From an uncultured Anaerolineales bacterium (GTDB taxonomy: Bacteria > Chloroflexota > Anaerolineae > B4-G1): DNA of 54,659 nucleotides. The stretch's first letter is position 1. Every line of letters begins with the position of its first letter. The notes beneath the pieces were generated by a model. The model was not told where the DNA came from, did no database searches, and was given only the letters and a program-made list of their open reading frames with translations. Below, piece by piece: positions 24,253-54,659 of this stretch. Both the position numbers and the translations under genes were made by a program. The stretch is taken from positions 482-55,140 of the forward strand of contig CAYUIS010000004.1 of the NCBI GenBank assembly GCA_964444825.1, in the 5' to 3' direction.

Positions 24253-25347
24253 CTAACCCTGCCGGAAACGCAACGCGTCCGTCGGACAGACCGTGGTGCA
24301 TAGACCACACGAGCGGCACCGCGCCTTTTCGAGAATCATCTCCACTTCGGGGGTGAGGTGGCGGGCTCTGTAGGCGCACGCGGTGACACAGCGGCCACAT
24401 TGGGTGCACAGTTCTGGGTCGAAGCAAAAGTCGAGCGCGGCGGAAGGGATGGACCTCTGCAGGTGGGGTAGGGCCAGGCCGCGTAATTCCTCCAGACTGG
24501 CGTAGTGGTGCTGCTCCAGCCATCGTTCCAGGCGGACCAGTGTCTTGCCGAACCATCCCAGCCCCTGAAGCAGGGGAGCGGTGTGGACACCTACCGCTGT
24601 CGCGCCAGCCATCACCATCTCGACGGCATGTTCCGCTTGCCCTACTCCCCCGGTGCCCACTACCGGGACGTCGTGCTGAAGACAGACTTCGGCCACGGCG
24701 CGCAGAGCGACGGGGCGGATAGCACTACCCGACAGCCAGGCGAAAGAGCCCAGCATCGGTTGCCCGGTCTCGACGTCCACCCGCAGTGCCGGGCCGATGG
24801 AGTCGATGGCGGTCACGCCGTCGGCGCCGGCCTGCAGGCATCCATCCACCACCCCTGCGAGGTCGGGCCAGTTGGCGCTGACCTTGATCAGGACGGGGAT
24901 CGTGACGTTCCGCTTCGCCGCTGCCACCATCGGCGCGGCATCGCGTGCCTGGTAGGAGACCAGTTCCAGCATATCGGCCCCGGCCGCGGCCAGAGGCGCT
25001 GCCAGTTGTTCCACCTCGGCAGGCGTGTGACCAGTGCTGGCGATGATGACCCTGTTCTGGAGAGCATTGTCCCTGTCAGCAAGAGTGGGCAGTTCCTCTT
25101 CGATCCACTGCAAAGCCGATAGATCGGACCAGCCCTCGGTGTTGAGCATACTCCCGCGTCCTGCCGCGGCGATGTGGGGCATAGGGTTGGTCGTCGCCTC
25201 AGGACGGATGGTCTTGGTGACCACTGCTGCCGCACCGGCGTCAAATGCTGCCTGAATCGCTTCCGCGTTCCAGGAGAGCGGGCCGGAAGCCAGGACGAGG
25301 GGGTTCGGTAGTCTAATGCCGCATAGGGCTACAGTCAGGTCAGACAC
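24253..25347 (-). CDS. Dihydroorotate/dihydropyrimidine dehydrogenase (PreA)-like FMN protein with C-terminal 2x[4Fe-4S], copy 1
   Basis: LPNPLVLASGP, VVTKT, LSGSAIRPVAL, GTGGV, CTQCGRC...CRSCGLCTTVCP. GTG 25347 follows AAGGAGG. The catalytic Cys loop is missing. Confidence 0.85.
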   Translation of the reverse strand: MSDLTVALCGIRLPNPLVLASGPLSWNAEAIQAAFDAGAAAVVTKTIRPEATTNPMPHIAAAGRGSMLNTEGWSDLSALQWIEEELPTLADRDNALQNRVIIASTGHTPAEVEQLAAPLAAAGADMLELVSYQARDAAPMVAAAKRNVTIPVLIKVSANWPDLAGVVDGCLQAGADGVTAIDSIGPALRVDVETGQPMLGSFAWLSGSAIRPVALRAVAEVCLQHDVPVVGTGGVGQAEHAVEMVMAGATAVGVHTAPLLQGLGWFGKTLVRLERWLEQHHYASLEELRGLALPHLQRSIPSAALDFCFDPELCTQCGRCVTACAYRARHLTPEVEMILEKARCRSCGLCTTVCPTDALRFRQG

Positions 25348-25438
25348 TGTGCCTCCTTGCTGCTTCAAGTGTCAGAGCTTCAGGTTATCGTGAATGGCTC
25401 GACCAAGAACCTGAGGCCCGGAAACAGATGACCCTGGA

Positions 25439-26764
25439 TCACGTCCGCCACAGGTGAACTGCTGCCTCAACCGCTCGTGCCCGCACCCTCGCCTCATCTA
25501 CGCCGATCACGTCCCCGTCCTTGAGGAGCCAGCGTCCAGCGCACATCACGCCACGCAGGTCTGAGGGGTTCCGCCAGAGGAGCAACTGATCGGCCAGGTT
25601 GTGGCGGGCCAGGGGGGTAGGTAGGTCGGCGGCGATCAGTAAGAGATCGGCCTGGTTGCCGAGGGCCAATGTCCCCAGGTTTTCGAAACCCAGTGCCCGA
25701 GCGCCGTTCTGTGTCGCCATTGTCCACACGGTGTCCGCTGGCATCGTGCCCGGGTCGAGCAGCCGGGCCTTTGGGATCAGAGCAGCGGCCCGCATCACCT
25801 CGAAAAAGTTATTGACATAACCATCGGTGCCCAGGGTGACGTTGACACCGGCAGCCAGCATCTCCGGAACGGGGGCAAAGCCGCCGCCCACTTCGCAGTT
25901 GGAAAGCGGCTGATGGGAAACGTGCACACCATTCTGAGCCAGGATAGCGATCTCAGCGGCGTCGATCTGCACGCATTGGGAGGCCAGCACGTGGTCACCC
26001 AGGACGCCCAGTTGGCCATAGTAGGCAACAGGCCGCAACCCAAAGTGGGACAGGCAGTATTCCGGCTCATAGGTTCCCTCAGAAAGGTGCATGTGCACTT
26101 TTGCACCCCGTTCTGCAGCCAGCCCAAAAGCACGCCGGATAAAGTCAGCGGAGCAGGTGAAGGTGGTGTGAAAGCACATCATTCCAGAGACCAGCCCGTC
26201 CCGTTCTCGGCAGGCGTCGATAAGGTCGGCGTTTTCGCGCAGACCCAGCTCGCCGTTCTCCGCACTCACCCGCTGGGTGGCCTCGAAGGAGAGCACGCCC
26301 CGCAGCCCTCGGCGGCGCACAATCTCAGCCTCCACCTCCAGCGCACCCGGCAGGGCATAGGGGGCTTCCAGGCAGTCATAGAACGTGGTGACGCCGGAAC
26401 GGACCATCTCCAGGCAGGCCCAATCGGTTGCGGCCGCGATGAGGTCGTGGGTCAGGCTGTCCTCGACCCGGGGCCACCAATAGTCCTCCAGGAATGGCCA
26501 AAAGCCAGCAGGAGCCTCCTCCAGCGGGATGCCGTGGGCCAGAACGCCGTACATATGATGATGCGCGTTGACAAAGGCGGGTGTGAGGATACAATCCTTC
26601 GCCTCCACGACGGCGGCATTTGGGAAACGGGCGCGCAGGTCGGCGTGGGGGGCAACAGCAACTATACGCTCATCTTGAACAGCTACGCCCCAACCCAGGT
26701 GGGGTGGCTGCGTCGTGTCAGCCCAGAGCATATGGCCCAAGATCAATGTCGTAAGCGTACGCAC
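25439..26764 (-). CDS. Metal-dependent amidohydrolase (SsnA/MtaD/deaminase-like), copy 1
   Basis: NAHHH, HMHLSE and LGTDG motifs. GTG 26764 fits the RBS AGGAGGT better than 26770. Confidence 0.88.
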   Translation of the reverse strand: MRTLTTLILGHMLWADTTQPPHLGWGVAVQDERIVAVAPHADLRARFPNAAVVEAKDCILTPAFVNAHHHMYGVLAHGIPLEEAPAGFWPFLEDYWWPRVEDSLTHDLIAAATDWACLEMVRSGVTTFYDCLEAPYALPGALEVEAEIVRRRGLRGVLSFEATQRVSAENGELGLRENADLIDACRERDGLVSGMMCFHTTFTCSADFIRRAFGLAAERGAKVHMHLSEGTYEPEYCLSHFGLRPVAYYGQLGVLGDHVLASQCVQIDAAEIAILAQNGVHVSHQPLSNCEVGGGFAPVPEMLAAGVNVTLGTDGYVNNFFEVMRAAALIPKARLLDPGTMPADTVWTMATQNGARALGFENLGTLALGNQADLLLIAADLPTPLARHNLADQLLLWRNPSDLRGVMCAGRWLLKDGDVIGVDEARVRARAVEAAVHLWRT

Positions 26765-26790
26765 TCTCACCTCCTAATACCCAATCTCCG

Positions 26791-26816: not shown

Positions 26817-26821
26817 CGGCG

Positions 26822-27106
26822 TCATCCCCCGGCGATGGCCGGGAAGAGCATCAGTTCGTCGCCGTCGGACAGCGGATCGTCGAACCGCTTGTGGGGCACC
26901 AGCTTTCGATTGCGAAATACGACCAGGTGGGACACGACATTTCCCTGCGGTGAAAAAAGCATCTGCTTTAGGTGAGGGCCGTGACGGTCTGCCAGGTATC
27001 CCAGCCCGGCGCGTAGCGACGTCCCCTCGTGCAGGGTGATGGTCTCCTGTTCAATGCCCGCGCTCCGGCGGAGCATATTGTGGTAGCGTATGCTGACGGT
27101 GATCAT
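26822..27106 (-). CDS. MoaD/ThiS-family sulfur-carrier (ubiquitin-like) protein, copy 1
   Basis: About 94 aa ending LSDGDELMLFPAIAGG; ATGA overlap with the AOR stop. Confidence 0.9.
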   Translation of the reverse strand: MITVSIRYHNMLRRSAGIEQETITLHEGTSLRAGLGYLADRHGPHLKQMLFSPQGNVVSHLVVFRNRKLVPHKRFDDPLSDGDELMLFPAIAGG

Positions 27107-29043
27107 TTCTCCGCCAGGCTCGGGTTCAGCCACGGGGCGGCCTCCTCCAGTCCCAGTTCGCGCAGCTTACGCTCGGTCGGCCAGCCGGTCTCTGGATCCC
27201 ATTCCCTCAACCGGTAGTATCCTTCCAACATCTGATCGAGTTCAACGACTTGCCCCTCAGCGTTCCCGGAGGGGGAAGGGTCCTCGGTAAACCGGCGGGG
27301 GAGGCGATCGTCGGCGCGGGTGATGCCGTGCCTGGCGTTGTAGCAGCGCTGGAGATTGTAAATCCGTTCGCCGATACGCTTCAACCGTTCCACAGGCATG
27401 TCCATCCCAGTCGCGGCCTCCAGCGCTGCAGCGATGTCGGGCCAATAGATCTCGGCCAGGACAAAGGTGCCGCCGGATTTGCACACCCCCACTGAGTCCA
27501 CCACCGCCCCGAAATCCTCGCCGTCCTTGACCAGCAGCGGCTTGTGCTTGATCGCCAGTGGATCTGCCATCTCCGGCAGGTACTTTTCTCCGTAACGACG
27601 GCGGGCCTCGTCTGGGAAGCCGGTCTCGTCGATGACGGGAAAGGCCTTGAGGTGGTCGGCTCCGCGGTTGGATGTGGCGTGTGCCAGCCCCATCGACTTT
27701 TGAGCACGGCCATCCTGCGCGGCGATCTCCATCCCCTTGACGTGCATCGCGTACTCTTCCGCACCCCGCCCGATAATGTCGGCCGCCCTGCGTACCCCCT
27801 CCGCAAGCAGAGCACCAAACCCCTCTCGACGGCTGATTTTTTCCAATAGGGGGAGGACGACGTCCGTGTCACTCCAGCGGAGCGCGAGCCCGTCCGTGTC
27901 GTCGAGGTTGAGGATCTCGTTTTCCCACAACTCCATAGCGAAACTGATCATCCGACCTGCAGAGATGGTGTCCATCCCCAGATCGTCACACAGTTGGTTG
28001 GCCGCCAATATGACGTCCAGGTCAGCGTTCAGGATATTGGCCCCCATCGAGTTGAGGGTCTCGTACTCAACGCTGTGCAGGGCGGTACCGGCGTGCGGTC
28101 CATCGGGGAGGCTGTACAGCTTGTCGCACCCGATGGGACAGCCGAAACAGGCCATGTGGCGAACAAAAGCCCGGCCTATCAGCGACTCTACGTTGATCTT
28201 GTCTACCTCCGAAAAAGACCCCATCTGGAAATTCTTGGTGGGGAAGCGGCCTAGGGGGTCCATCAGAGAGACGATGCCGGGGGTTCCGTGGGCGGAGACG
28301 TCAGGATAGATGGGATTGGCGCGAATCCGGCGGTGAAACTCGACCGCCAGATCGTGGAAACGCTCCGGATCAGCTATATGCACAGGCCCGCGTCCCCGAA
28401 CTGCGATCGCCTTTAGGTTCTTGCTTCCCATCACCGCGCCCAATCCACAACGACCGAGTGAACGCTGCGACGTAACCTGAATACTGGCAAAACGAACCTG
28501 GTTCTCGCCAGCCGGTCCAATCGTCGCAACCTTGATCTGAGGGTCGCGCCCAGCATGGCGGATGGCAGACTCGGTCTGGGAGGTGGTCAGCCCCCAGAGT
28601 TCATCCGCGGGGCGCAGCTCGACTCTGCCCTTGTCCTGCCCGCCAGGAACAGGGTCGTCGGATAGCGCCAGGTAGACCGGCTCGGGTGCCCGTCCGACGA
28701 AAACGACCGCATCCCATCCGGCGAACTTTAGTTCCGGACCGAAGAAACCACCAGCGTTCGCGTCACCATATATGCCGGTGAGGGGCGACTTGGCGATGGC
28801 CTCCATCCGGCAGGCGTTGGGCACCAATGTGCCGATGAGAGGGCCCGCAGCGATGATGAGGAGGTTCTCCGGGGCCAGGGGGTCCACCTCAGCTCCCACG
28901 TTGTCCCACAATAGGCGGGTCCCGAAACCATTGCCGCCCAGGTAGTCTTCGGCCAGTGTCTGGTCATATTCCTGCGGTTCGATCTTGCCCGTGCTCAGAT
29001 CGATGCGCAACCACTTGCCGACAAAACCTTTGTACGGAAACAT
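27103..29043 (-). CDS. Aldehyde:ferredoxin oxidoreductase-family (W-pterin) catalytic subunit 1
   Basis: KSPLTG, GAVMGSKNLKAI, CFGCPIGC, EYET, DDLGMDTIS, RGADHL, YYRLREWD. Confidence 0.93.
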   Translation of the reverse strand: MFPYKGFVGKWLRIDLSTGKIEPQEYDQTLAEDYLGGNGFGTRLLWDNVGAEVDPLAPENLLIIAAGPLIGTLVPNACRMEAIAKSPLTGIYGDANAGGFFGPELKFAGWDAVVFVGRAPEPVYLALSDDPVPGGQDKGRVELRPADELWGLTTSQTESAIRHAGRDPQIKVATIGPAGENQVRFASIQVTSQRSLGRCGLGAVMGSKNLKAIAVRGRGPVHIADPERFHDLAVEFHRRIRANPIYPDVSAHGTPGIVSLMDPLGRFPTKNFQMGSFSEVDKINVESLIGRAFVRHMACFGCPIGCDKLYSLPDGPHAGTALHSVEYETLNSMGANILNADLDVILAANQLCDDLGMDTISAGRMISFAMELWENEILNLDDTDGLALRWSDTDVVLPLLEKISRREGFGALLAEGVRRAADIIGRGAEEYAMHVKGMEIAAQDGRAQKSMGLAHATSNRGADHLKAFPVIDETGFPDEARRRYGEKYLPEMADPLAIKHKPLLVKDGEDFGAVVDSVGVCKSGGTFVLAEIYWPDIAAALEAATGMDMPVERLKRIGERIYNLQRCYNARHGITRADDRLPRRFTEDPSPSGNAEGQVVELDQMLEGYYRLREWDPETGWPTERKLRELGLEEAAPWLNPSLAEK

Positions 29044-29114: not shown

Positions 29115-29540
29115 TCAAGCGTGCACCGTAACTACCCCGGTCGGGCACATCGCTGCGCACTCGGGCTCACCGCCACACAGGTCACATTTGAGGGATACAC
29201 CCAGTTCCTCGTTCACGAATATCGCCCCGTACGGACACGCCTGCTCGCAGTCGCCGCAGCCAATACACACGTCCACATCGACCACCCACGCACCAAGAAT
29301 GTCGTTCAAGGCGATCGCGTCTACCGGGCAGGCCTCAGCGCAGGGGGCGGTTTCACCATCCGGCCACTCCAAAGCGCCACACTGGCGGCAGATGTTGGGC
29401 GTGAACGGTCCCTTGTCGCTCTCAGCCAGGATGGTGATACGTGAGCGTCCCGGCCAGATGGCCCTCTCGTGGTGGAAAGAGCAAAAGCTCTCACAGATGC
29501 GGCAGCCAGTGCACTTTTCGGTTTCTACCTTCAGATACAT
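29115..29540 (-). CDS. 4Fe-4S dicluster protein (DmsB/AOR small-subunit type), copy 1
   Basis: CTGCRICESFC, CRQC...CAEACP, CIGCGDCEQACP, KCDLC...CAAMCP; ATG 29540 after GGAGG. Confidence 0.92.
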   Translation of the reverse strand: MYLKVETEKCTGCRICESFCSFHHERAIWPGRSRITILAESDKGPFTPNICRQCGALEWPDGETAPCAEACPVDAIALNDILGAWVVDVDVCIGCGDCEQACPYGAIFVNEELGVSLKCDLCGGEPECAAMCPTGVVTVHA

Positions 29541-29576: not shown

Positions 29577-30956
29577 CTACGCGCCAGGCTGTCGAACCAC
29601 AAAGCGCCCCCAGTCCTCTTTGCCGACGAATTCGCCATCGCGCACGATCACCCGGCCTCGACTGAGCACATCACGGGGCCAGCCCTGGATGTGTTTTCCC
29701 TCGTAGGGCGACCAGTCCACGCGCTCGTGGAGCGTTTCCCCGGCCTGCAGAGTTACCCAATGGTCTGGATCGAAGATAACCAGGTCAGCGTCAAAGCCAG
29801 GCGCGATCTGCCCCTTGCGATCCAGACCAAAGATGCGGGCCGGGTTGGTGCAGCAGACCTCGACCCAACGCTCCAGTGTCATCCAGTATCGCTGGCCAAA
29901 GTGGTAGGCCAGGCTAAGGCGCGCCTCGATGGAGGGCAGCCCGCCAGGGACCGTGGTAAAGTCGGCATGACGGCTCTTGTCAGCGGCAGTAAATGGGCAG
30001 TGATCGGTCGCCAGCACGTCCAGATCCTCGAAGGCTAATCCGCCCCATAGCGCCTCATTGTCCTCCTCCGCTCTCAGGGGCGGCGAACAGATCAGGCGTT
30101 CTCCACCGGGCAGATCCAGGGCCATCCCGTTCAGCAATAGGTACTGCGGGCAGGTCTCGCCGTAGATGTCCTCGCCGCGCGCCCGTGCGGCCTGGATGCG
30201 CGATAGGCTGTCCTCACATGAGACATGGACGATGTAGACAGGGCTCTCGGCTAGCGCGGCGACGTCGATAGCTCGGCTCACCGCCTCCGCCTCCTGGCGG
30301 GGTGGGCGGGTCAGGGCATGGTAGATAGGGAGAGTATCGCCACGAGCCACCGCCTGGGCGCGCAGGGCCTCACATATGGGGCCGTTCTCACAGTGGATGA
30401 TGGGCAGACCGCCAACCGCCGCGATGGCCTCCATCGCACGGAAGAGCTGCACGTCATCCAATCGCAAATCCTCATAGGCCAGGTAGAGCTTGAAGCTGGA
30501 CACACCTGCCGCCATCACCGCTGGCAGATCGTCCAGCGATTCAGGATGGGCAGCGTGCCACGTGGGGATGGTCATATGGAGACCATAGTCCACTGCCACG
30601 CGTCCATCCGCCTCGGCCCGCCGTTTCTCCAGCGCCTCCAGCAGCCGCTCTCCCGGCTCCGGCTCGACAAAGTCAATGACCGTTGTCGTGCCCCCCCACG
30701 CCGCCGCGACCGTGCCGCTGGCAAAGTCGTCACTGCTGACGTATTCACCGACCGGCATCTGGAGATGGACGTGGGGATCTATGCCTCCAGGCAGCACGTA
30801 GCAGCCCGTAGCATCAAGCTCGACCGCGCCCTGGGAGCCAGGTGGATTTGCTCCCACCTCAACCAGTGCGGCAATGCGCTCCCCGACGATGCCCACGTCG
30901 GCGGAAAAGACACCACTTGGGGTTATGAGTGTGCCGTTACGAATGACTGTATCCAT
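29577..30956 (-). CDS. hydA: Dihydropyrimidinase / D-hydantoinase
   Basis: PGGIDPHVH, GGTTT, SFKLY (carbamylated Lys), HCENG, HVS, ETCPQYL, SPPLR, TDHCPF. Confidence 0.92.
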   Translation of the reverse strand: MDTVIRNGTLITPSGVFSADVGIVGERIAALVEVGANPPGSQGAVELDATGCYVLPGGIDPHVHLQMPVGEYVSSDDFASGTVAAAWGGTTTVIDFVEPEPGERLLEALEKRRAEADGRVAVDYGLHMTIPTWHAAHPESLDDLPAVMAAGVSSFKLYLAYEDLRLDDVQLFRAMEAIAAVGGLPIIHCENGPICEALRAQAVARGDTLPIYHALTRPPRQEAEAVSRAIDVAALAESPVYIVHVSCEDSLSRIQAARARGEDIYGETCPQYLLLNGMALDLPGGERLICSPPLRAEEDNEALWGGLAFEDLDVLATDHCPFTAADKSRHADFTTVPGGLPSIEARLSLAYHFGQRYWMTLERWVEVCCTNPARIFGLDRKGQIAPGFDADLVIFDPDHWVTLQAGETLHERVDWSPYEGKHIQGWPRDVLSRGRVIVRDGEFVGKEDWGRFVVRQPGA

Positions 30957-30976
30957 CAAGATAGCTCACCCCTTTG

Positions 30977-32887: not shown

Positions 32888-32897
32888 AAGCAACTCC

Positions 32898-33266
32898 TTA
32901 ACTGATGACCGAGTACAGGATCACCTTGATAGAGTCGGGATCGGTGACCGAAAAGGCGCGATGACCCCAGGGTTTGTCAGCGAGACCCTTCTTGATAGGC
33001 AGCCCCTTCTCCTGGACACGTTCGTACCATCCATCCACATCGTCCACCTCGTAGGATAACTCCATTCCCTGCGGTGGCACATACGTCTCTCCAGGGCGTA
33101 AGGCCAAAACCTCAATGATGCCAGAGGCTGCCTGGAACAATGTCCCACGTTCAGCCGGCCCTCGATCCCATGAGCTAACGATGGGCAACCTTAGCCCATC
33201 TCGGTAAAACGCCACTGAGGCGTCATAGTCCTTTGCTCTAAAAATAAAACGAAACTCCCCTGTCAT
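32898..33266 (-). CDS. VOC/glyoxalase-family protein
   Basis: SVAFYRDGL, VDDVD, DKPWGHRAFSVTDPD. Confidence 0.9.
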   Translation of the reverse strand: MTGEFRFIFRAKDYDASVAFYRDGLRLPIVSSWDRGPAERGTLFQAASGIIEVLALRPGETYVPPQGMELSYEVDDVDGWYERVQEKGLPIKKGLADKPWGHRAFSVTDPDSIKVILYSVIS

Positions 33267-33282
33267 TGTCAAACTCCTCCTC

Positions 33283-33957
33283 TCAGCTATCTCGTCTCAG
33301 GATCCGCACATCCAAAGCCATCAGACCGTGCTCGAACAACCTCACGGGGTTCAGGTCCAATTCCTCAATCTCTGGCCTCTCTGTGATCATCTGGGAAACC
33401 GTGAGCAGCAACTTGATCAACGCCTCAACGTCGTATCCAGACTGGCCGCGCACACCCTCCAGCAGAGACCACCCACGAATCTCCCGGACCATCTCCTGTG
33501 CATCTCTATATTCCAGAGGAACGACCCGGAAGCTCACGTCCTTCAGTACTTCCGTAAAAATCCCCCCCAGGCCGAACATCACCGTCGGCCCGAACATCAC
33601 GTCGTGCAGCGCGCCCACGATCACTTCGAGCCCAGCAGACACCTGCTTGGAGACCAGGATTCCCTGGATGTCAGCGCCAGGAACATGCTCACGAACCGTG
33701 GCGACGATCCGGTCATAGGTGTTTGCCACACTTGGCCCGTCGTCCAGCCCCACGACCACTCCTCCCACGTCGCTCTTGTGGGGCGCGTCCGGCGAGACGA
33801 CCTTGAGCACGACAGGGTACCCCAGGCGGGCAGCAAGAATCGCCGCTTCCTCGGCGCTGTGTGCTACAGCGTGATCTGGATATGGAATCCCATAATCATA
33901 CAGGAGAGAAACGGCCTCCGGTTCCAAGAGGACACGGGATGGTGTATCCCCGCTCAT
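33283..33957 (-). CDS. acdB: Acyl-CoA synthetase (ADP-forming) beta subunit, ATP-grasp
   Basis: GYPVVLKVVSP...HKSDVGGV, FGPTVMFGLGGIFTEVLKDVSFR, ELDLNP. Confidence 0.92.
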   Translation of the reverse strand: MSGDTPSRVLLEPEAVSLLYDYGIPYPDHAVAHSAEEAAILAARLGYPVVLKVVSPDAPHKSDVGGVVVGLDDGPSVANTYDRIVATVREHVPGADIQGILVSKQVSAGLEVIVGALHDVMFGPTVMFGLGGIFTEVLKDVSFRVVPLEYRDAQEMVREIRGWSLLEGVRGQSGYDVEALIKLLLTVSQMITERPEIEELDLNPVRLFEHGLMALDVRILRRDS

Positions 33958-43780: not shown

Positions 43781-43814
43781 AGAAACCAGGTTCTTCGCAA
43801 AAAACCTGGTTTCT
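43781..43814. repeat. AGAAACCAGG palindromic repeat, copy 4
   Basis: AGAAACCAGGTTCTTCGCAAAAAACCTGGTTTCT, abutting the hydantoinase B stop. Confidence 0.85.
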
Positions 43815-47736: not shown

Positions 47737-49077
47737 CTAGATCGCTCCTGCGCGTTTCCAGAGCGCCGTCGTCTCCTCGACCACCTTGCGGTGAATCTCC
47801 TCCTCGTCCACGTTGACCAGCTTGCCATCCTGGACAACCACCTCGCCATCCACCAGGACCGTCTCCACATCCGCGCCGTCCACGTCGTTGATGAGCGTAT
47901 CGTAGAACAACTGTGGGAGGAGTGGCGAGGGTTGGCTTGGGTTGATGATGATCACGTCCGCCTTTTTGCCGACCTCCAGCGAGCCGATCTCTTGCTCCAT
48001 TTGGAGTGATTTGGCGGCGTTGGTCGTCGCCAGGTCAATTGCCTGGAAGGGTGGGATGAGCATGGGGTTGTGGTGATGGACCTTGTGCAGCAGGTAGGCC
48101 ATACGGACGTACTGGAAAATGTCGAGGGTAAAGAAACAATCGTGGCCCAGGCTGACCGTGATGCCCTCGTTCAACATATCCACCACCGGCGCGACTCCGC
48201 TGCCGCCCAGCATGTTGCTCATCGGCGTGTGTGAGACCTTGACGTCGTGCTCTTTCCAGATCGCGATCTCTTCCTCCGTCATATGGATACAGTGGACGGC
48301 CAGCACATCGGGGCCGAGGAATCCGGTATCGCGCAGCACGACCGGGGCGGTGCGCCCAAACTTTTCCACCACCATCGGCGGCGGGACTTCGGCGACGTGG
48401 ATCACCAGCCCGGCCCCCAGGTCGGTGGCGATACCGCGCACCTGGCGCAACATCTCCTCGGAGGCGGTGAAGGCGGTGTGAACGCCGATGCGCCCCGTGA
48501 TGCGACTGTCGGGCGCGTCTCGCCACTTTTTGAAAAAGCGCACGTTCTCATTGATCCCTGCCTCGGCGTTCTCCTTGTCGATACGCTCTGTCGACTCGTA
48601 GCAGATGACGGCGCGGCTGCCAAGCTCTCCGATGGCCTCGGCGGTCTTGTCCAGGCATCCGTCCACGACGCTGGCCGCCTCGACCATGTCGCACACGGTC
48701 GTGGTGCCGGTCTTGAGCATCTTGCCCGCGGCCCAGAGCGTCGTCCAGTAGATGCCCTCGAGGGTCGTCTGCTCCTCGATGTCGGGCCACCACCACTTGG
48801 TCAGCAGGTCCATAAACGACTGGAACTTTGAAAAGTCCACCGGCATATTGTGCCCCACGACGCTGGGCATGTGGGTGTGGGTGCAGATAAAACCCGGTGC
48901 GACGATCTTGCCGGTAGCGTCTATGACGGTGGGAGCGGTGTGAGCCGCCTCCACCTCGTCCCGCGGGCCGACGGCCACGATACGATTTCCCTCGATAACC
49001 ACCGCGCCATCGGCAAAGACACGGCGGTCAGTGTCTTGCGTTCCTACCAATCCTCCTGCGATAAGTATGTCTGCCAT
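47737..49077 (-). CDS. Metal-dependent amidohydrolase (SsnA/MtaD/deaminase-like), copy 2
   Basis: CTHTH, IHVAE, AVHC, LGHD; paralog of 25439-26764 (shared WWPxxE and ExTxR segments). Confidence 0.88.
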   Translation of the reverse strand: MADILIAGGLVGTQDTDRRVFADGAVVIEGNRIVAVGPRDEVEAAHTAPTVIDATGKIVAPGFICTHTHMPSVVGHNMPVDFSKFQSFMDLLTKWWWPDIEEQTTLEGIYWTTLWAAGKMLKTGTTTVCDMVEAASVVDGCLDKTAEAIGELGSRAVICYESTERIDKENAEAGINENVRFFKKWRDAPDSRITGRIGVHTAFTASEEMLRQVRGIATDLGAGLVIHVAEVPPPMVVEKFGRTAPVVLRDTGFLGPDVLAVHCIHMTEEEIAIWKEHDVKVSHTPMSNMLGGSGVAPVVDMLNEGITVSLGHDCFFTLDIFQYVRMAYLLHKVHHHNPMLIPPFQAIDLATTNAAKSLQMEQEIGSLEVGKKADVIIINPSQPSPLLPQLFYDTLINDVDGADVETVLVDGEVVVQDGKLVNVDEEEIHRKVVEETTALWKRAGAI

Positions 49078-49117: not shown

Positions 49118-49752
49118 GTTGGACGGCGCATTACTAACCGCACCAACTGCGCCTAGTCACCTCATCTGTTGTGTATTTCACATTCACTGCCTTCAAGTCG
49201 TCTTTGAAGATGCAAAGCACATCCTCAATCTCATGCGGTTCAAGTTGACCAAGTTCTGGAGGTAACTCCGACATTTCGAGTGTCCGGGCTTTACTCTCAA
49301 AGCCTAAGGCTCGCGCACCTTTCCGTGTTCCTGCATGGAGGTATACCTTTGTCGGTAGCAAACCCAGCTTTGCGCCGATACGCAGACTGGTATCATAAAT
49401 GTAGAGTTCGCCAATACCGGTGATTCCCCCAACTCTTGTCTCGACCAGCGAAAACAGATCATCGAAACTCTTGGACTGCGCGATTGCTTTTGAATTCATC
49501 AACAGAACCCGACGCGCTTCTTCGAGAGCAGTCTTTTTGAGCCTATACTGATGCGAGTATCTCTTACCCTCGCTGTTGGTGGCAAGTGCCGCCTGTTCGA
49601 TAGCCGACTCCAGCGAGGGTTGCTGCCGAAACCAATCTAATTCAGTCTGAGCTCGAGGCCGAATATCACGGACGTAGATGTGAGCAATGGCTTTCAAGTT
49701 CATATTTGATTCTCCGGTATTATGATTGAGTCAGCAGCAAGCGTCGTCCAAC
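49118..49752 (-). mobile_element. Integron gene-cassette-like insertion (orphan, attC incomplete)
   Basis: Low-GC gene bounded by 11/12 inverted repeats that read GTTGGAC (GTTRRRY) upstream and GTCCAAC (RYYYAAC) just after the stop. Confidence 0.5.
49134..49703 (-). CDS. Hypothetical protein, possibly with a helix-hairpin-helix fold
   Basis: 189 aa; RBS GGAG; ITGIGEL and EIEDVLCIFK motifs; composition differs from its neighbours. Confidence 0.75.
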   Translation of the reverse strand: MNLKAIAHIYVRDIRPRAQTELDWFRQQPSLESAIEQAALATNSEGKRYSHQYRLKKTALEEARRVLLMNSKAIAQSKSFDDLFSLVETRVGGITGIGELYIYDTSLRIGAKLGLLPTKVYLHAGTRKGARALGFESKARTLEMSELPPELGQLEPHEIEDVLCIFKDDLKAVNVKYTTDEVTRRSWCG

Positions 49753-49844: not shown

Positions 49845-51026
49845 TCAATCAAAGTACGCAAACCGAATCGCCTGCACCGGGCAGCTATCCCGGCATAGAC
49901 CACAGCCATAACACCGGTCCGCGTCCGCGTGAGCCAGTTTGTCGTCGCCCACGTGGATCGCGTCGTAGACACAGGAAACCTCACACCGCTTGCAGCCGGT
50001 GCAGCGATCGAGGTCAATAATGGGCATCTGAGGCGTGGTGATGGCGACCAGTCCCCGCTCGCGCCGCGCCTCGATTCTGCGCAACGCCAGCCCGACGAAA
50101 TCGCTCACGTCGCTGTAGCCGTGATCGGCGACCCAGCGTTCAATGTCCGCGATGATCTTGCTGAACGTGCGCGCGCCTTTCAAATGGCCTGCGGTCACCA
50201 CGCCGACAAAGCTAGCGCCGGCCATAAAGTACTCGATGGCGTCCTCGGCGCGGGAGATGCCACCCACGCCGATAAGGGGAATAGAGACGTGTTGCGCCAT
50301 CTCCAGGATCATACGTAGCGCGATAGGCTTGAGCGCTGGACCAGTCAGGCCGCCCGCCCCCCGAGGCCCGCCGAGCGAAGGCTCGCCGCTTTCGATGTCG
50401 ATCTTGATGGCGGGACCAAATGCATCGGCGCAGGCGATTGCATCGGCGCCCGCCTCCTCGACCGCGGTAGCCCACTCGACGACGTTGGCGTGGAAGAGCG
50501 AGCTGAACTTGGCGATGACGGGCACGTCCACCGCCGCTTTCACGGCCTGCACGTTCGCCACATAGGGTGCGACGTCGTGCACCTCCGGCGGGGGCATCGT
50601 CATGCCGGGGAACATTGCCTCCAGGATCTCGCCCATGTGCGGGCAGACGGTGGGCATCTCGATCATGTCGGCCCCGGCAGCGACGGCGCGCTTGGCCAGG
50701 TCAGCGCCTTCGCCAGGGCTCAGCCCTGCCAATGAGGCGATGATGGGGATCCCTGCCTCTCGGGCGCGAGGCAACTCTCGCTCGAACCACTGCTCTGCCG
50801 GTAGCGTCGTGCCGAACACACAGTTGAGAAAGCCTCCCTCGACTCCGGCGAAACAGGGCCGCACGTCCTCCACCGCCTGCGCGACGATGGTCTTGGTGGT
50901 GATGGCAGCAACCCCTTCACCGCTGGTGCGGACGATGATGTCACCATCGGCGCCGTGGCAGCCGGCCGCCACGATGACCCGGTTGCGCATCGGAACGCCG
51001 GCGAGGGTCAGATTGGCATCTTGCAT
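49845..51026 (-). CDS. DHODH/PreA-like FMN protein with C-terminal 2x[4Fe-4S], copy 2
   Basis: ITTKT, VCPH, GGLTGPALKPIALR, GVGGI, CTGCKRC...CYGCGLCRDSCP. Confidence 0.87.
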   Translation of the reverse strand: MQDANLTLAGVPMRNRVIVAAGCHGADGDIIVRTSGEGVAAITTKTIVAQAVEDVRPCFAGVEGGFLNCVFGTTLPAEQWFERELPRAREAGIPIIASLAGLSPGEGADLAKRAVAAGADMIEMPTVCPHMGEILEAMFPGMTMPPPEVHDVAPYVANVQAVKAAVDVPVIAKFSSLFHANVVEWATAVEEAGADAIACADAFGPAIKIDIESGEPSLGGPRGAGGLTGPALKPIALRMILEMAQHVSIPLIGVGGISRAEDAIEYFMAGASFVGVVTAGHLKGARTFSKIIADIERWVADHGYSDVSDFVGLALRRIEARRERGLVAITTPQMPIIDLDRCTGCKRCEVSCVYDAIHVGDDKLAHADADRCYGCGLCRDSCPVQAIRFAYFD

Positions 51027-51047
51027 AGTTTTTGCTCCTGGCCGTGG

Positions 51048-51092: not shown

Positions 51093-51095
51093 TGG

Positions 51096-52097
51096 CTATG
51101 CTCCCAACAGCAGTGCCAGAACCGCTTTTTGCACGTGCAGCCGGTTCTCGGCCTCATCCTGGATGACCGACTGGGGACCATAGATGACGTCTGCGGTCAC
51201 CTCGTGGCCCACGGCGGCCGGCATACAGTGCATAAACTTGGCACTGGGCTTGGCGAGCGACATGATCTCGTCGTCCACGATCCACTTTTTGAACGGTTCA
51301 GGGTTCTGATTGTGTGGGACCGGGGCCTGCCAGTCGTATTCCGGGCCGGCGCGAAAGTCGGCTGGCATCACGTAGCTGTAGGCATTGACAAAGTCCGCGT
51401 CCTTGGCTGCCTTTTTCATGTCGTGGACGATCTCAATATCGGCGCCGCCTTCGCTGGCAAAACCTTTGGCCCGCTCAACAATGTCCTGCGGTGGGGTGTA
51501 CTCTTCCGGGCAGGCCAGCACAAACTGCATATTGGGGATGCGCGAGGCCAGGTAGAGGCTGGATGTGACCAGCCCCAGCGGCGGGTTGTACTCGTGATAG
51601 GCCCAGGTCAACACGTACTTAGTGTTATCAAAGCTTCCCTTCTTTTCCAGCGCGGTCTGAAAGTCGGCCAGCGCCTGGAAGGGATGCTCGAAATCGGTGG
51701 AGGCGTTGAGCACAGGGATCTCGGCGATGCCTGCCGCCTCCTCCAGCGTGGATTGGGCCAGCAGGCGGGCGATGATGACGTCAAAGTAACGATCCATCAC
51801 GCGGACGGTATCGCCCCAACTCTCCACGCCCGAATCAGACCAAATCTTGCCGCCGCTCAGATCCTGTGCGGCACCGCCAAGTTGGTGCATCGCCCGCCAG
51901 AAAGACATCCGGGTCCGGGACGACGGTGTCTCATAGATCATCGCCGCCGCCTTGCCACGCAAGATGTCGTCCTGGTGCTGCCCCCGAGAGACTCCCCGCT
52001 TCAGTTCCAGCGAAGTCTGGAGAATCAGTTCGATCTCTTCCAGAGAAAAGTCAGCCAGCGAGAGAACGTCACGGCCTTTAAGACCCAAAGCGCCCAT
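51096..52097 (-). CDS. Ornithine carbamoyltransferase-superfamily transcarbamylase (AOTCase/YgeW-like)
   Basis: SSRT, HPFQALAD, YVLTWAYH, FMHCMP, EAENRLHVQKA; lacks the DxxxSMG ornithine motif. Confidence 0.88.
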   Translation of the reverse strand: MGALGLKGRDVLSLADFSLEEIELILQTSLELKRGVSRGQHQDDILRGKAAAMIYETPSSRTRMSFWRAMHQLGGAAQDLSGGKIWSDSGVESWGDTVRVMDRYFDVIIARLLAQSTLEEAAGIAEIPVLNASTDFEHPFQALADFQTALEKKGSFDNTKYVLTWAYHEYNPPLGLVTSSLYLASRIPNMQFVLACPEEYTPPQDIVERAKGFASEGGADIEIVHDMKKAAKDADFVNAYSYVMPADFRAGPEYDWQAPVPHNQNPEPFKKWIVDDEIMSLAKPSAKFMHCMPAAVGHEVTADVIYGPQSVIQDEAENRLHVQKAVLALLLGA

Positions 52098-52179
52098 TTT
52101 TAGCTCCTTTCTAATGTGTATTGTCTGTCACGTGATGTGCGATTTGATATTTGGGGTTTGTCATTATGTCAGTGTTTAT

Positions 52180-52467
52180 TCATCCACCAGCCATTGGCGG
52201 CACAAAGACCACCACGTCGCCTTCGGATAGGGAGCGGTCAAGGTCAGTTGGCCCACGCGGATGGGCGCGGTTGACCAGCATCAATGCCAGTGGACCTGTG
52301 CCCGTTTCGAGTGGCGTCACCACTTGCTCAACGAACGGTGCGGGTAGCAGCTCACGCAGGACGTCCAGCAAGTCACGCAACGTGGCTCTGTCGGTCAGCG
52401 ACAGCTTCAGGCTCTGATGACCAGCCAGCGTACGCAACGGTCCGGAGAACCGGACGGTGATCTGCAT
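52180..52467 (-). CDS. MoaD/ThiS-family protein, copy 2
   Basis: MQITVRFSGPLR...LSEGDVVVFVPPMAGG; ATG 52467 directly after the AOR stop. Confidence 0.9.
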   Translation of the reverse strand: MQITVRFSGPLRTLAGHQSLKLSLTDRATLRDLLDVLRELLPAPFVEQVVTPLETGTGPLALMLVNRAHPRGPTDLDRSLSEGDVVVFVPPMAGG

Positions 52468-52468
52468 A

Positions 52469-54298
52469 TCACGCGTGGAGTCCGAGTGCCGCCAGACGCT
52501 CGGGCGTGGGATGGCCTCGTTCGTCCCACCCGCGTGTCTCGTAATAGTCCCGCAGCAGCCTCGCAAAGTCCTCCCGCGTGAGCGGTTTGGCGTCCTCTGG
52601 AAAGTCCCCTGGCACCTCAAAGCAGATATCGGGCAGCCGATCCTCGCTTCCGTCAATCCCGGCCGCGAGGTTGTACAGCCGCTCCAGGTTCCAGATACCT
52701 TCGCCCAGCCGCATGAGCTGCTCCTCGGTGTAGCTCAAGCCGCTGGCGGTGTTTAGCAACGCCAGGAACTGTTCCATCGGCAGGGTGAACTCGGCAAACC
52801 GGCACGCGATGAGGCAAAAGATCGCGTTTACCTTGTTCTGAATCTCTGCCACCAGCGCCGCACGTCCCTCAAGACCGTCCATCGGTATCACGTCCATAAG
52901 CTCCATCCCGATGGGAGCACGTTTGTGGCACGCACCCCGGTTGGAAGTAGCAAAAGTGACGGCGATGCCGCGCATTCGTTCCGGCATCCAGGCGGCAAAC
53001 TCCATACCTTTGACCTGCAAGGCAAAAGCCTCTGAACCCTGCCCGATCGTCTGCGAGGCGCGCCGGACGCCTTCAGCCAGCATATCGCCCAGGCCCTTCC
53101 GTTGGCCGATCATGTCTATCAACTTGATCGTGGCGTCGGCGTTGCCGAACTCTAGCGGCACGTCCCCCCCCAGCGCGTCTCGCGGCAGTATGCCCCGTTC
53201 AGCGCACTCCATTGCAAAGGCGACACAAACCCCCAGGGAGAGCGTGTCCATACCATACTGTTCAGCCTGATTGTTGGCTTTGAGCAGCATCTCGGGATCG
53301 TCGTTAAAACACAAGGAGCCCAGCGAGTACATCGTCTCGTATTCGGGGCCTCGGGTCCAGATCTCACCCCACCTGGTTTTCACCGGCTTGTGCAGCATAC
53401 CGCAGTGTACCTGACAGCCCATACAGGCGATGGCACGGGTGGGGAAGCTGTCGACAAAGGCTTGCCCTCCGATCTCCTCCGCCTTCTCAAAGTGGGTCTG
53501 CCGGTGATATCGCGTCGCCAGGGCGTGTTTTTCGTTGACCAGCCCTATCGAGCCTCCCGTGCCAGTCCGCCCAAAAATGCCCAGTAGACTCCACGGATCA
53601 GATACATCCTCACGGAAGGTCTGGTAGGCCGCGTCCACAGCCGCTCCAAAAGCCTCTGGATCGCCCACCCTTACATCGCCGATACCGGCTACCCCCACCA
53701 CCTTGAGGTTCTTGGAGCCGAATACCGCGCCCGCCCCACCTCGTCCAAAGGCCCGGGTCTCGGAGATCACGGAGGCGTACCGTATCCTATTCTCACCAGC
53801 CTGTCCGATGGCCAGGGTATGCAGATCATCTCGTCCGGAGGCGGCCTTTACCGCTTCCTCTGCGTCTCGAGCGGGTTCCCCTGCCAGCTTGGGGCAATCC
53901 ACGATCTGTGCCCCATCGGGCGTAACCAGGAGGTAGACCAGTTGGTCCGCCTTACCCTCGATGGCGATGACGTCATACCCGGTGGCTTTGATAGCGCCTC
54001 CCATATGACCGCCTGCGTACGTGTTGATAATGCCTCCGGTGAGGGGAGATTTGGTGATGATGGCGGTCTGCGCAAACAGGGGGGCCAGCGTGCCGGTGAG
54101 CGGGCCTACGCAGATATAGATCTTGTTTTCTGGACCCAGCGGATCCGCGGTGGGGGCCACCTCGTCGCAAAAGAGCTTGGTGCCAAACCCCATCCCGCCG
54201 ACCCAACGCTCGATGAAGGCGTCTCGCAACGGCTCTTCGGTTACCGTGCGCGTGCTCAAGTTGATCCGTAGCAGCTTTTTCCCATAACACTCAAACAT
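52469..54298 (-). CDS. Aldehyde:ferredoxin oxidoreductase-family catalytic subunit 3
   Basis: TKSPLTG, GRGGAGAVFGSKNLK, CMGCQVHC, PEYET, YGMDT, RGACH; ATG 54298 after AGGGAG. Confidence 0.93.
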   Translation of the reverse strand: MFECYGKKLLRINLSTRTVTEEPLRDAFIERWVGGMGFGTKLFCDEVAPTADPLGPENKIYICVGPLTGTLAPLFAQTAIITKSPLTGGIINTYAGGHMGGAIKATGYDVIAIEGKADQLVYLLVTPDGAQIVDCPKLAGEPARDAEEAVKAASGRDDLHTLAIGQAGENRIRYASVISETRAFGRGGAGAVFGSKNLKVVGVAGIGDVRVGDPEAFGAAVDAAYQTFREDVSDPWSLLGIFGRTGTGGSIGLVNEKHALATRYHRQTHFEKAEEIGGQAFVDSFPTRAIACMGCQVHCGMLHKPVKTRWGEIWTRGPEYETMYSLGSLCFNDDPEMLLKANNQAEQYGMDTLSLGVCVAFAMECAERGILPRDALGGDVPLEFGNADATIKLIDMIGQRKGLGDMLAEGVRRASQTIGQGSEAFALQVKGMEFAAWMPERMRGIAVTFATSNRGACHKRAPIGMELMDVIPMDGLEGRAALVAEIQNKVNAIFCLIACRFAEFTLPMEQFLALLNTASGLSYTEEQLMRLGEGIWNLERLYNLAAGIDGSEDRLPDICFEVPGDFPEDAKPLTREDFARLLRDYYETRGWDERGHPTPERLAALGLHA

Positions 54299-54308
54299 CG
54301 CCCACTCC

Positions 54309-54659
54309 CTATTCACCTATGCTCAATGCGCCTGCAAAGCAATCCGCCACGCATTCGAACTGACCGTCGCAGGTATCACACTTTATCGCGACCTCTGACA
54401 GTGGATCCAACCAGATGCCGTCATAGGGACAGGCATCGACGCAGTCGCCACATCCGATGCACGCGTCATAATCTACCTTGACGATACCCTTTTCGGTGCG
54501 CACCAGTGCCTCGACCGGGCAGGCCGGCAGGCAGTGTGGGTCCTCGCATTGGATACATACCCGCGCTTGTGGCAGACCTGGCCAGCTTGAAACGATCCGC
54601 ACCCCCGATTTGTTGGGGTTGAATAGATCAAAATGCACGAAGGAGCACTTTAGCTCGCA
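54309..54659 (-). CDS. 4Fe-4S dicluster protein, copy 2 (5' end outside the window)
   Basis: The frame stays open to the window edge (CELKCSFVHF...); CIQCEDPHCLPACP, CIGCGDCVDACP, KCDTC. Confidence 0.9.
   Translation of the reverse strand, partial: CELKCSFVHFDLFNPNKSGVRIVSSWPGLPQARVCIQCEDPHCLPACPVEALVRTEKGIVKVDYDACIGCGDCVDACPYDGIWLDPLSEVAIKCDTCDGQFECVADCFAGALSIGE

Follow-up and report, generated by a model that had tools for sequence, protein, structure and literature searches.

What would an anaerobe do with 25 co-oriented genes that place hydantoinases, amidohydrolases, ring reductases, a molybdenum hydroxylase and a carbamoyltransferase beside three AOR-family oxidoreductases? The question is raised by positions 24253 to 54659 of a 54,659-nucleotide stretch of DNA (the window) from an uncultured Anaerolineales bacterium, corresponding to positions 482-55140 of a 69.8-kb contig (C4) in a metagenome-assembled genome (MAG) of 86% completeness. 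On comparison with related loci, the window reads as the larger part of a catabolic operon conserved in uncultured Anaerolineae and starting outside the window, at an MttB-family gene. As to function, we tentatively suggest, at a little short of an even chance, that the operon would direct the catabolism of an N-methylated, ureide-forming heterocycle with ATP gained via carbamoyl phosphate, and that it would be a paralogue of the reductive purine pathway.

The initial annotation described 25 co-oriented, tightly packed genes, and this is borne out by the list of open reading frames (ORFs), in which all 25 lie on the minus strand and neighbors either overlap by 4-23 nucleotides or are separated by gaps of at most about 141 nucleotides, a few ORF starts having been shifted to the first domain-supported ATG. 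Every enzyme family named there was confirmed by Pfam, the two Amidohydro_1 proteins belonging to the SsnA/chlorohydrolase group; absent from that inventory were two AorA-like polyferredoxins, two MoaD/ThiS-like proteins, a VOC/glyoxalase protein and a 189-residue ORF without a family. In the direction of transcription, the genes are:

54309..54659, minus strand: Fd1, AorA-like polyferredoxin (Fer4_11 + Fer4_7), its 5' end cut by the window end and an N run
52469..54316, minus strand: AOR1, AOR-family (W/Mo-pterin) oxidoreductase (AFOR_N + AFOR_C)
52180..52467, minus strand: MoaD1, MoaD/ThiS-like protein with C-terminal GG (PF02597)
51096..52097, minus strand: CTase, putative carbamoyltransferase of an undescribed subfamily (OTCace_N + OTCace)
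49845..51026, minus strand: UacX1, class-1 DHODH/DPD-like FMN protein with C-terminal 2x[4Fe-4S] (PF01180 + Fer4)
49134..49703, minus strand: hyp189, 189-residue ORF without family (no Pfam or NCBIfam match)
47737..49077, minus strand: SsnA1, SsnA-related amidohydrolase (Amidohydro_1)
45561..47645, minus strand: HydA, putative ATP-dependent hydantoinase/lactamase alpha (Hydant_A_N + Hydantoinase_A + Hydant_A_C)
43814..45577, minus strand: HydB, putative ATP-dependent hydantoinase/lactamase beta (Hydantoinase_B, 556 bits)
42649..43758, minus strand: OpineDH, opine-type secondary-amine dehydrogenase (Octopine_DH)
41709..42602, minus strand: XdhFAD, FAD subunit of molybdenum hydroxylase (FAD_binding_5 + CO_deh_flav_C)
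38913..41699, minus strand: XDH, fused 2x[2Fe-2S] and molybdopterin subunit (Fer2, Fer2_2, Ald_Xan_dh_C, MoCoBD_1/2)
37960..38916, minus strand: EamA/DMT transporter (PF00892)
36531..37970, minus strand: ACD alpha, ADP-forming acyl-CoA synthetase alpha (CoA_binding_2 + Succ_CoA_lig)
34574..36553, minus strand: IorA (TIGR03336, 648 versus cut-off 650.9)
33954..34577, minus strand: IorB (POR domain; TIGR03334, 188.7 versus 205.8)
33283..33957, minus strand: ACD beta, ATP-grasp (ATP-grasp_5)
32898..33272, minus strand: VOC/glyoxalase-fold protein (PF00903)
30977..32893, minus strand: AOR2 (AFOR_N + AFOR_C)
29577..30959, minus strand: DHPase, HyuA-like dihydropyrimidinase/D-hydantoinase (passes TIGR02033, 474.7 versus 393.25)
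29115..29540, minus strand: Fd2, AorA-like polyferredoxin (Fer4 domains)
27103..29043, minus strand: AOR3 (AFOR_N + AFOR_C)
26822..27106, minus strand: MoaD2 (PF02597)
25439..26770, minus strand: SsnA2, SsnA-related amidohydrolase (Amidohydro_1)
24253..25368, minus strand: UacX2, second DHODH/DPD-like reductase with 2x[4Fe-4S] (PF01180 + Fer4)

A convergent two-component system bounds the array at position 24253. The window end at 54659 is no operon boundary, and the array runs on through at least four more genes spaced by 12-24 nucleotides, namely an MtmB-family gene, a gene for a B12-binding corrinoid protein (CoP), one for a dehydrogenase of the ornithine cyclodeaminase (OCD)/mu-crystallin family, and an MttB-superfamily gene. 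At 126 nucleotides past MttB follow a Zn-ADH, a DeoC-type aldolase, PTS-Man IIC/IID and IIB components and a GntR/UTRA regulator, so that co-oriented genes extend to the GntR gene about 10.6 kb past the window end. An N run of about 100 bases just outside the window (L002:1093-1195) fuses the MtmB-like and ferredoxin frames; the resulting 599-residue MtmB-Fd1 "fusion" ORF was rejected as an artefact of this run, given that the orthologous contig L089 has a complete Fd1 orthologue of 135 residues as its own gene 13 nucleotides after the MtmB-like gene. Consensus scans returned 7 and 8 promoter-like sites against 3.8 and 5.1 expected, and 10 and 11 terminator-like sites against 12.4 expected; neither shows an excess, and they count as evidence neither way.

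Querying metagenome contigs with SsnA1 recovered 15 loci with orthologues 53-100% identical. A conserved order of 16 genes, MttB-OCD-CoP-MtmB-Fd-AOR-MoaD-CTase-UacX-SsnA-HydA-HydB-OpineDH-XdhFAD-XDH-transporter, recurs, as far as contigs reach, on six metagenome contigs (L087, L089, L091, L092, L094 and L098) and two MAG contigs (G718:C33 and G487:C416) at 41-92% amino acid identity; these eight counted loci are not necessarily eight organisms. The order from MttB to XDH is seen in L089, L092, L094 and L098 (in L094 without AOR1), L091 stops inside HydA, L087 begins at CoP, G718:C33 keeps the same order from MttB through HydA, and in G487:C416 MttB-OCD-CoP-MtmB is followed directly by CTase-UacX-SsnA without the Fd-AOR-MoaD unit. 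The methyltransferase block and the CTase-UacX-SsnA run are each present in eight of eight loci, HydA follows SsnA1 in all seven loci extending that far, and OpineDH-XdhFAD-XDH follows HydB in all five that reach it (L087, L089, L092, L094, L098), as it also does in L086. AOR1 is found in six of the eight, L094 retaining only an Fd fragment and MoaD. Matching operon pieces lie on the separate contigs L003 and L137. Within L089 identities range from a minimum of 52% (MoaD) to a maximum of 92% (CTase), with 55% for the transporter, and EamA is conserved at just 53-56% among the loci keeping it. Its position in L092 and L094 is taken by an ECF S-component and an ABC ATPase; the S-component of L092 matches PF09819 (ABC_cobalt), and that of L094, an ORF of identical length in the same place, was assigned by position without a domain scan. 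Within PF09819, YkoE is the protein associated with hydroxymethylpyrimidine uptake. L094 also has a GntR/FCD regulator immediately preceding MttB. More divergent versions are seen in L096 (CTase 47%, UacX 41%, SsnA 53%, HydA 57%) and G466:C38, which has the order GntR/FCD-DHDPS-HydB-OpineDH-CTase (HydB 65%, OpineDH 51%, CTase 48%). The hyp189 gene, found only here and in contig L084 (98-100% identical) and absent from all other orthologous loci, is a strain-specific insert; it separates UacX1 from SsnA1, and G+C is lower there (0.573). A lack of co-conservation had been named as the observation that would overturn a catabolic cluster, and the recurrence of the gene block in eight loci upholds it; as to extent, the array is real, but the conserved unit is not 24253-54659, its core running from 37960 to about 59385.

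Among 400 other Anaerolineae-class genomes sampled, the CTase is present in three (G718, G487 and G466), and the operon in two, plus one distant version. No SsnA1 orthologue above 41% and no orthologous operon was found in the 60 nearest relatives, and G138, G247 and G105 show no synteny with it. For HydA, the best match in 400 sampled Chloroflexota reaches 50%, and, counting this genome as well, 178 of 401 have matches at E <= 1e-120, none above paralogue level. An XDH-anchored synteny search of 185,579 species genomes gave one close relative (L003, 76%); in the other 79 loci kept, identity is 29-40% and nothing beyond XdhFAD or HydAB is shared. Operon orthologues with 70-91% amino acid identity occur in MAGs of three families (G718 in f124, G487/G061 in f111, G000 in f1), G061 and G487 being two handles for one MAG (identical match coordinates), the one behind L003. 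This three-family spread, taken together with the absence from 60 closer relatives, suggests lateral transfer, or else errors of binning or classification. The next-nearest XDH relatives, at about 36-40%, lie on contigs of marine alphaproteobacterial MAGs (L005, L007, L008, L010, L011 and L045), where XDH is followed by two genes without a Pfam family and then by HydA/HydB homologues (33-37%); in L007 a 2-oxoacid:ferredoxin oxidoreductase and a flavoprotein precede this locus. The window sequence itself recurs in salt-marsh and estuary metagenome runs. With runs sharing less than 0.2 of sampled words excluded (n=17), the best run shares 0.93 and is possibly the source sample, and six further runs (six study codes, from salt marsh in 2019 and estuary in 2025, perhaps only two campaigns) share 0.24-0.71. 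No RNA run is among those listed.

The half of the array from ACD alpha onward behaves differently. ACD alpha, represented by its N-terminus, follows EamA in L087, L089 and L098, at 66-67% over the available 126-136 residues. G718 carries ACD alpha-IorA-IorB-ACD beta on contig C96 (80%, 72%, 75% and 65%) and SsnA2-MoaD2-AOR3 on another contig (59-76%). In G487/G061 this half (58-82%) is spread over three contigs, with AOR2-Fd2-AOR3-MoaD2 on C159, SsnA2-UacX2 on a second and DHPase on a third, DHPase therefore not lying between AOR2 and Fd2. By gene, orthologues were found for AOR2 (71-73%, G487/G061 C159), Fd2 (58%, G487/G061), AOR3 (71-74%, G487/G061 and G718), MoaD2 (59%), SsnA2 (76-82%) and UacX2 (68%, adjoining SsnA2 in G487/G061), and none for the VOC/glyoxalase protein in the related loci examined. 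The IOR/ACD/AOR/DHPase half is thus attached to the operon and kept only in the closest relatives, in rearranged form, and is outside the demonstrable deeper core. The combination of IOR, ADP-forming acyl-CoA synthetase and AOR is known from Thermococcales as a module for arylpyruvate fermentation; it is matched here by IorAB, a split ACD alpha/beta and AOR in one run, and differs in that IorA and IorB fall just under curated cut-offs and that only the closest relatives have the run joined to the operon. The loss of AOR1, the shift of DHPase and the lack of IOR/ACD orthologues in G487/G061 imply that not all genes of the interval serve one obligatory pathway.

The closest published template for the core is the reductive uric-acid/2,8-dioxopurine pathway. 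According to the two reports describing it (10.1101/2025.05.19.654654; 10.1101/2025.04.24.650524), urate is converted to 2,8-dioxopurine by XdhD-YgfM or XdhAC, YgfK or the PF01180 protein UacX carries out reductive dearomatisation, SsnA cleaves the ring, HyuA opens the hydantoin, the ureido group is cleaved by YgeW plus carbamate kinase (yielding ATP) or by UacY, and YgeY also acts, the pathway ending with the 2,3-diaminopropionate lyase YgeX. The E. coli set comprises xdhD-ygfM, ygfK, ssnA, hyuA, ygeW, yqeA, ygeY and ygeX, and C. difficile has a UacX/UacY variant (same sources). As given there, the published families equal the set of the operon: XDH, UacX-type reductase, SsnA, hydantoinase and carbamoyltransferase. 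The likeness extends to a molybdenum hydroxylase with an FAD subunit, a reductase of UacX architecture beside an SsnA-clade amidohydrolase, the predicted opening of a hydantoin, and a carbamoyltransferase whose product can yield ATP through a carbamate kinase encoded elsewhere. The differences are that the five shared enzymes are here distant paralogues below curated cut-offs, with closer copies elsewhere in the genome; that a putatively ATP-dependent HydAB takes the hydantoinase place in the conserved core; that the CTase has the fold of ornithine carbamoyltransferase (OTC) and not the knotted YgeW type; that YgeX and YgeY are absent; and that two corrinoid methyltransferases, OCD-like and opine dehydrogenases and, variably, AorAB-type AORs are added. 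The initial annotation had recognized no matching pathway; a published uric-acid template now exists, of which the cluster would be a paralogous variant.

The E. coli-type enzymes have their best matches in this genome away from the operon: XdhD on C41, YgfK and HyuA on C14, SsnA on C55, YgeW and YqeA on C57 and YgeY on C8. The closer paralogues include XdhD/YgfM-like proteins on C41 (34-35%), a full-length YgfK-like protein on C14 (39%) and SsnA on C55 (35%), and the carbamate kinase on C57, 45-47% identical to YqeA, is the only YqeA homologue of the genome. YgeX yielded only a 108-residue fragment match in this genome, and domain calls across the window and the genes upstream include neither a carbamate kinase nor an M20 peptidase nor a PLP lyase. 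The noted lack of YgeX, YgeY and carbamate kinase therefore holds for the window, but carbamate kinase is encoded on C57 and a YgeY-like protein on C8. The dispersed urate-like set consists of YgfM and XdhD-like genes (C41:14941-18526), a YgfK-like gene followed further on by HyuA-like and amidohydrolase genes (C14:23964-33163), GntR, two YgeW-like CTases and carbamate kinase (C57:10016-13994), and SsnA (C55:26905-28305). A further paralogous cluster (C5:44185-65020) comprises GntR, an SsnA-like gene, an M20 peptidase, four ORFs without family, two amidohydrolases, AOR, polyferredoxin, XDH (with a KE motif and no FAD subunit), a UacX-like gene and dihydropyrimidinase. G032:C126 has a near-identical SsnA-like gene and a C5-type run SsnA-SsnA-AOR-Fd-XDH.

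Only the dihydropyrimidinase passes a curated NCBIfam cut-off; the other array proteins stay below every equivalog threshold, in line with the earlier expectation that the enzymes would not group with characterized members. SsnA1 and SsnA2 score 296.6 and 249.7 on TIGR03314 (SsnA; cut-off 455.5) and share 25-27% identity with E. coli SsnA, whereas the C55 copy reaches 35%. A maximum-likelihood tree places the two as sister to E. coli SsnA and the C55 copy together, in a clade (support 100/99) that excludes GuaD-type and other deaminase-type paralogues. UacX1 lies below all NCBIfam cut-offs, and its best solved relative is DHODH B PyrD (102 bits); a PF01180 plus 2x[4Fe-4S] gene adjoins an SsnA-like gene twice in the array, the term UacX being used here by architecture. 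XDH scores 740.4 on TIGR03311 (cut-off 830.45) and 339.7 on TIGR03313 (XdhD type; 1101.9), XdhFAD scores 198 on XdhB models (310), and XDH (g14) and its orthologue lack the insertion that carries E606 in XdhD, which the C41 paralogue of the same genome has. HydA and HydB carry the diagnostic Pfam domains (Hydantoinase_A 320, Hydantoinase_B 556 bits) and remain below the caprolactamase equivalog level (alpha 766, beta 435 versus 1000). HydA, present in a single copy in the genome, is closest among solved structures to caprolactamase (6yra, 562 bits) and N-methylhydantoinase (7hk5, 536 bits), and its family membership makes ATP dependence of HydAB putative. OpineDH, 78-87% identical in orthologues, has CENDH (1bg6, 164 bits) as its best solved relative.

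The carbamoyltransferase is, as judged from its sequence features, a putative enzyme of an undescribed subfamily, neither YgeW nor OTC. It stays under the cut-offs of both the OTC model (TIGR00658, 253.4 versus 280.85) and the YgeW model (70.6 versus 500), and its best solved relative is Pyrococcus OTC (205 bits). The carbamoyl-phosphate motifs SxRTR, HPxQ and HCxP are kept. GDGNN and DxxxSMG are the names of the ornithine-binding motifs of OTC; in the CTase both are replaced and two insertions are present. In an alignment (A1) of seven members of the new clade with four OTC-annotated sequences, including the OTCs of Pyrococcus horikoshii, Fictibacillus enclensis and Pyrodictium occultum, both ornithine motifs are replaced in 7/7 clade members and kept in 4/4 OTC-annotated sequences. 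The protein is 80-92% identical across orthologous loci, and the clade comprises some 33 sequence clusters that are at least 80% identical and some 23 in the 41-55% range, from MAGs of Anaerolineae, Bacillota and Spirochaetales; all functionally named members have been auto-labelled "ornithine carbamoyltransferase".

The corrinoid block upstream contains MT1 proteins and a cognate B12-binding protein, without a pyrrolysine codon: the MttB-like protein matches PF06253 (369 bits) and is closest to the solved glycine betaine methyltransferase MtgB (294 bits), the MtmB-like protein matches PF05369 (256 bits), is closest to solved MtmB1 (165 bits) and has a frame without in-frame stop, and CoP matches PF02310 and PF02607. 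For the OCD-like protein, the nearest relatives are Pyr2C reductase, archaeal alanine dehydrogenase and SbnB. According to PMC13044021, MtqB is the only characterized non-pyrrolysine MtmB homologue, demethylating the quaternary amines tetramethylammonium and choline. The block resembles the quaternary-amine demethylation systems presented there (MtgB, MtpB, MtcB, MtyB, MtqB) in combining MttB, non-pyrrolysine MtmB and a corrinoid protein, and differs in that the methyltransferases are embedded in a putative ring-cleavage operon, with an OCD-like dehydrogenase between MttB and CoP. The operon genes include no methylcorrinoid:THF/CoM methyltransferase or activase, no search having been aimed at MT2 or the activase.

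AOR1 has AORs as its best solved relatives (9mqx, 1aor and 8c0z at 337-354 bits, AorB 8c0z giving 337 bits). The Fd-AOR-MoaD triplet is present twice, without AorC, and its metal may be W or Mo. For Aromatoleum aromaticum, PMC6365974 gives the order aorA-aorB-aorD/E, with MoaD-like aorD and aorE; its AorABC is resembled by the polyferredoxin-AOR-MoaD-like order found twice here, and differs in having the FAD/NAD subunit AorC, for which there is no gene here, and in that the units here adjoin UacX, SsnA and XDH genes. Four clusters (two here, one on C5 of the same genome and one in G032:C126) place an AorAB-type unit next to UacX, SsnA or XDH genes, which suggests a redox link. A complex prediction for UacX1 with the AorA-like polyferredoxin scored 0.00 against a mark of 0.32, without controls, and gives no verdict. 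The AOR/polyferredoxin units are accessory and non-essential, given the absence of AOR1 from 2/8 loci, and the proposed tungsten dependence fails as a core property on the same count.

All enzymatic steps of the route that we propose are derived from family membership and gene order, the linkage alone being observed. The substrate would enter through a transporter that differs between loci (EamA here, a YkoE-type ECF system in others), and its N-methyl groups would be moved to one corrinoid protein by the MttB-family and non-pyrrolysine MtmB-family methyltransferases. XDH with its FAD subunit, a Mo enzyme, would hydroxylate or dehydroxylate a carbon adjoining nitrogen, and UacX would reduce a ring C=C in a ferredoxin-type reaction, pulled by hydrolytic cleavage through the adjacent SsnA-like amidohydrolase. 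HydAB would then open the remaining hydantoin, lactam or cyclic-urea ring in an ATP-driven step, the CTase would phosphorolyse the ureido group to carbamoyl phosphate, from which the carbamate kinase of C57 would make ATP, and the secondary or primary amine left over would be cleaved or oxidised by the dehydrogenases of opine and OCD type. In the extended version of the closest relatives, IOR and ACD would convert a 2-oxoacid to acyl-CoA and a second ATP, and the extended block also adds two AorAB-type AORs, a second UacX-SsnA pair and the dihydropyrimidinase. The chemistry these enzymes would imply supports the earlier proposal of N-heterocycle or cyclic-amide breakdown with substrate-level ATP formation. 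Candidate substrates, unranked by data, are creatinine/N-methylhydantoin-like compounds, N-methylated purines or pyrimidines, and imidazole betaines (hercynine).

The creatinine/N-methylhydantoin route offers a second point of comparison. It consists of creatinine deiminase, ATP-dependent HyuAB and N-carbamoylsarcosine amidohydrolase and is found anaerobically in Clostridium sp. FS41, whose enzyme was reported to be ATP-independent, and in Tissierella (PMC4417704). Shared features would be an aminohydrolase, a two-subunit ATP-dependent hydantoinase and a decarbamoylation step, as well as a product, an N-methyl amino acid, that would be usable by an opine-type dehydrogenase or a methyltransferase. 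The operon differs in lacking an isochorismatase-type N-carbamoylsarcosine amidase and sarcosine reductase, so that decarbamoylation would be phosphorolytic, and in its XDH and UacX, which have no part in that route. That HydB-OpineDH-CTase persists even in the most distant locus is compatible with a ring leaving a secondary amine, as N-methylhydantoin would; this is a lead rather than a result. Searches of the literature yielded no description of this gene combination, nothing on the MttB superfamily together with ornithine cyclodeaminase and nothing relevant for MttB with hydantoinase and corrinoid; the SSN and gene-neighbourhood tables supplementing 10.1101/2025.05.19.654654 may include Chloroflexota clusters of this kind.

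Several observations weigh against the catabolism of an N-methylated, ureide-forming ring. The XDH active-site motif is GGAFGARN (RN), as against KE and RE in the C5 and C180 paralogues and KQ in E. coli XdhA and XdhD, the GGxFGxK-x position being presumably that of bovine XOR E802, and its best solved relatives are the aldehyde oxidoreductases of Desulfovibrio (488 bits); given this kinship and the GARN motif, XDH may not act on a ring. Characterized non-pyrrolysine MttB- and MtmB-family enzymes act on quaternary amines, and we know of no abundant substrate that is both quaternary and ureide-forming. DHPase, which shares 41% identity with E. coli HyuA, belongs to the non-core half and varies in position, and in G487/G061 no IOR/ACD orthologues were found, the best IorA and ACD matches (32-45%) being paralogues. 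The linkage of the methyltransferase block to the ureide genes could also mean co-regulation of two routes. Taken further, this would make the locus a mosaic of independent modules set head to tail (quaternary-amine demethylation, AorAB aldehyde oxidation, a ureide/hydantoin module and IOR-ACD arylpyruvate fermentation), co-regulated or co-inherited without a single pathway. Such a view, which we consider rather unlikely, gains from the absence of AOR1, Fd and MoaD from G487:C416 and of AOR1 from L094, the closing of the block after XDH by a different transporter in L092 and L094, the placement of DHPase on a separate contig in G487/G061, where IOR/ACD orthologues were not found, and the abundance of paralogues in the genome (14 AOR, 9 XDH, 24 MttB and 11 SsnA-like). 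It is opposed by the persistence of MttB-OCD-CoP-MtmB, directly followed by CTase-UacX-SsnA apart from the optional AOR unit, in 8/8 loci down to 62-82% identity (L092, L094), by the short spacing and the one regulator in front in L094, and by the transporter swap at the end of a fixed block, which would be typical of a single-substrate operon.

The same enzyme families (XDH with FAD subunit, UacX-type, SsnA-type, HyuA-type DHPase and carbamoyltransferase) would be expected if the locus were simply the reductive uric-acid pathway in a Chloroflexota form, with unmethylated purines as substrates; SsnA-family members are reported from Chloroflexota in 10.1101/2025.05.19.654654, and an out-of-cluster carbamate kinase has a precedent in C. 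sporogenes, according to 10.1101/2025.04.24.650524. However, closer homologues of the E. coli enzymes lie on C41, C14, C55, C57 and C8, the operon proteins fall far below the XdhD (340 versus 1102) and YgeW (70.6 versus 500) models and SsnA1 and SsnA2 below the SsnA cut-off, there is no YgeX or YgeY in the cluster, the corrinoid methyltransferases, HydAB and OpineDH would be without a role, and the C5 cluster, with its KE-motif XDH, UacX, DHPase, three amidohydrolases and M20 peptidase, fits plain purines better; hence this version appears very unlikely. A route without any ring as substrate, for an N-methylated or opine-type guanidino or carbamoyl amino acid such as an opine or betaine of a basic amino acid, would make OpineDH, the OCD-like protein and CTase central, with XDH and AOR oxidising aldehydes and HydAB reopening a spontaneously cyclised lactam. 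The persistence of HydB-OpineDH-CTase in G466:C38 beside a DHDPS-family lyase and a GntR/FCD regulator, the kinship of the OCD-like protein with Pyr2C reductase, archaeal AlaDH and SbnB, and that of XDH with aldehyde oxidoreductases are consistent with this. We nevertheless regard it as improbable: the two UacX-SsnA pairs are hallmarks of reductive ring cleavage, conserved in 8/8 loci, the CTase is without ornithine-binding motifs, and domain calls gave no arginine deiminase, arginase or amidinotransferase family member in the cluster.

If catabolism of an N-methylated heterocycle is correct, the chemistry of gut urate breakdown would be a general template that anaerobes have duplicated and re-tooled for other nitrogen heterocycles; such sets number at least three in this genome (the operon on C4, the cluster on C5 and the scattered E. 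coli-like genes). The operon might also offer a handle on the roles of bacterial non-pyrrolysine MtmB homologues, of the OTC-like CTase clade (about 56 sequence clusters) and of AorAB beside ring-reducing enzymes, and, if true, the result would for the first time assign a physiological role to a bacterial non-pyrrolysine MtmB homologue and to the CTase clade. A more doubtful extension, though one worth stating, is that sediment Anaerolineae possess a hitherto unknown anaerobic route for an abundant N-methylated ring, in which corrinoid demethylation would feed C1 metabolism and the new CTase family would feed ATP formation; this would bear on the turnover of methylated organic nitrogen in anoxic sediments.

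Two further features of the window deserve mention. Six tandem paralogous genes for FtsX-domain ABC permeases of about 780-810 residues, with 37-58% pairwise identity, occupy the minus strand of 1312-16546 (Pfam was run on two of the six), and a single ABC ATPase gene (15782-16546) is the upstream neighbor of this array. A REP-like intergenic hairpin of the form AGAAACCAGGTTTT...AAAACCTGGTTTCT, with the read-through translation "KPGF", is found at positions 36579, 36610, 41712, 41743, 43801, 47661, 47691, 47718, 51049, 51079 and 17610. The motif has 70 copies genome-wide, 12 of them on this contig, and among orthologous loci it occurs in the near-identical L084 only; its copy number and its absence from the orthologous loci led us to reject it as a pathway operator and to consider it a strain-specific element.

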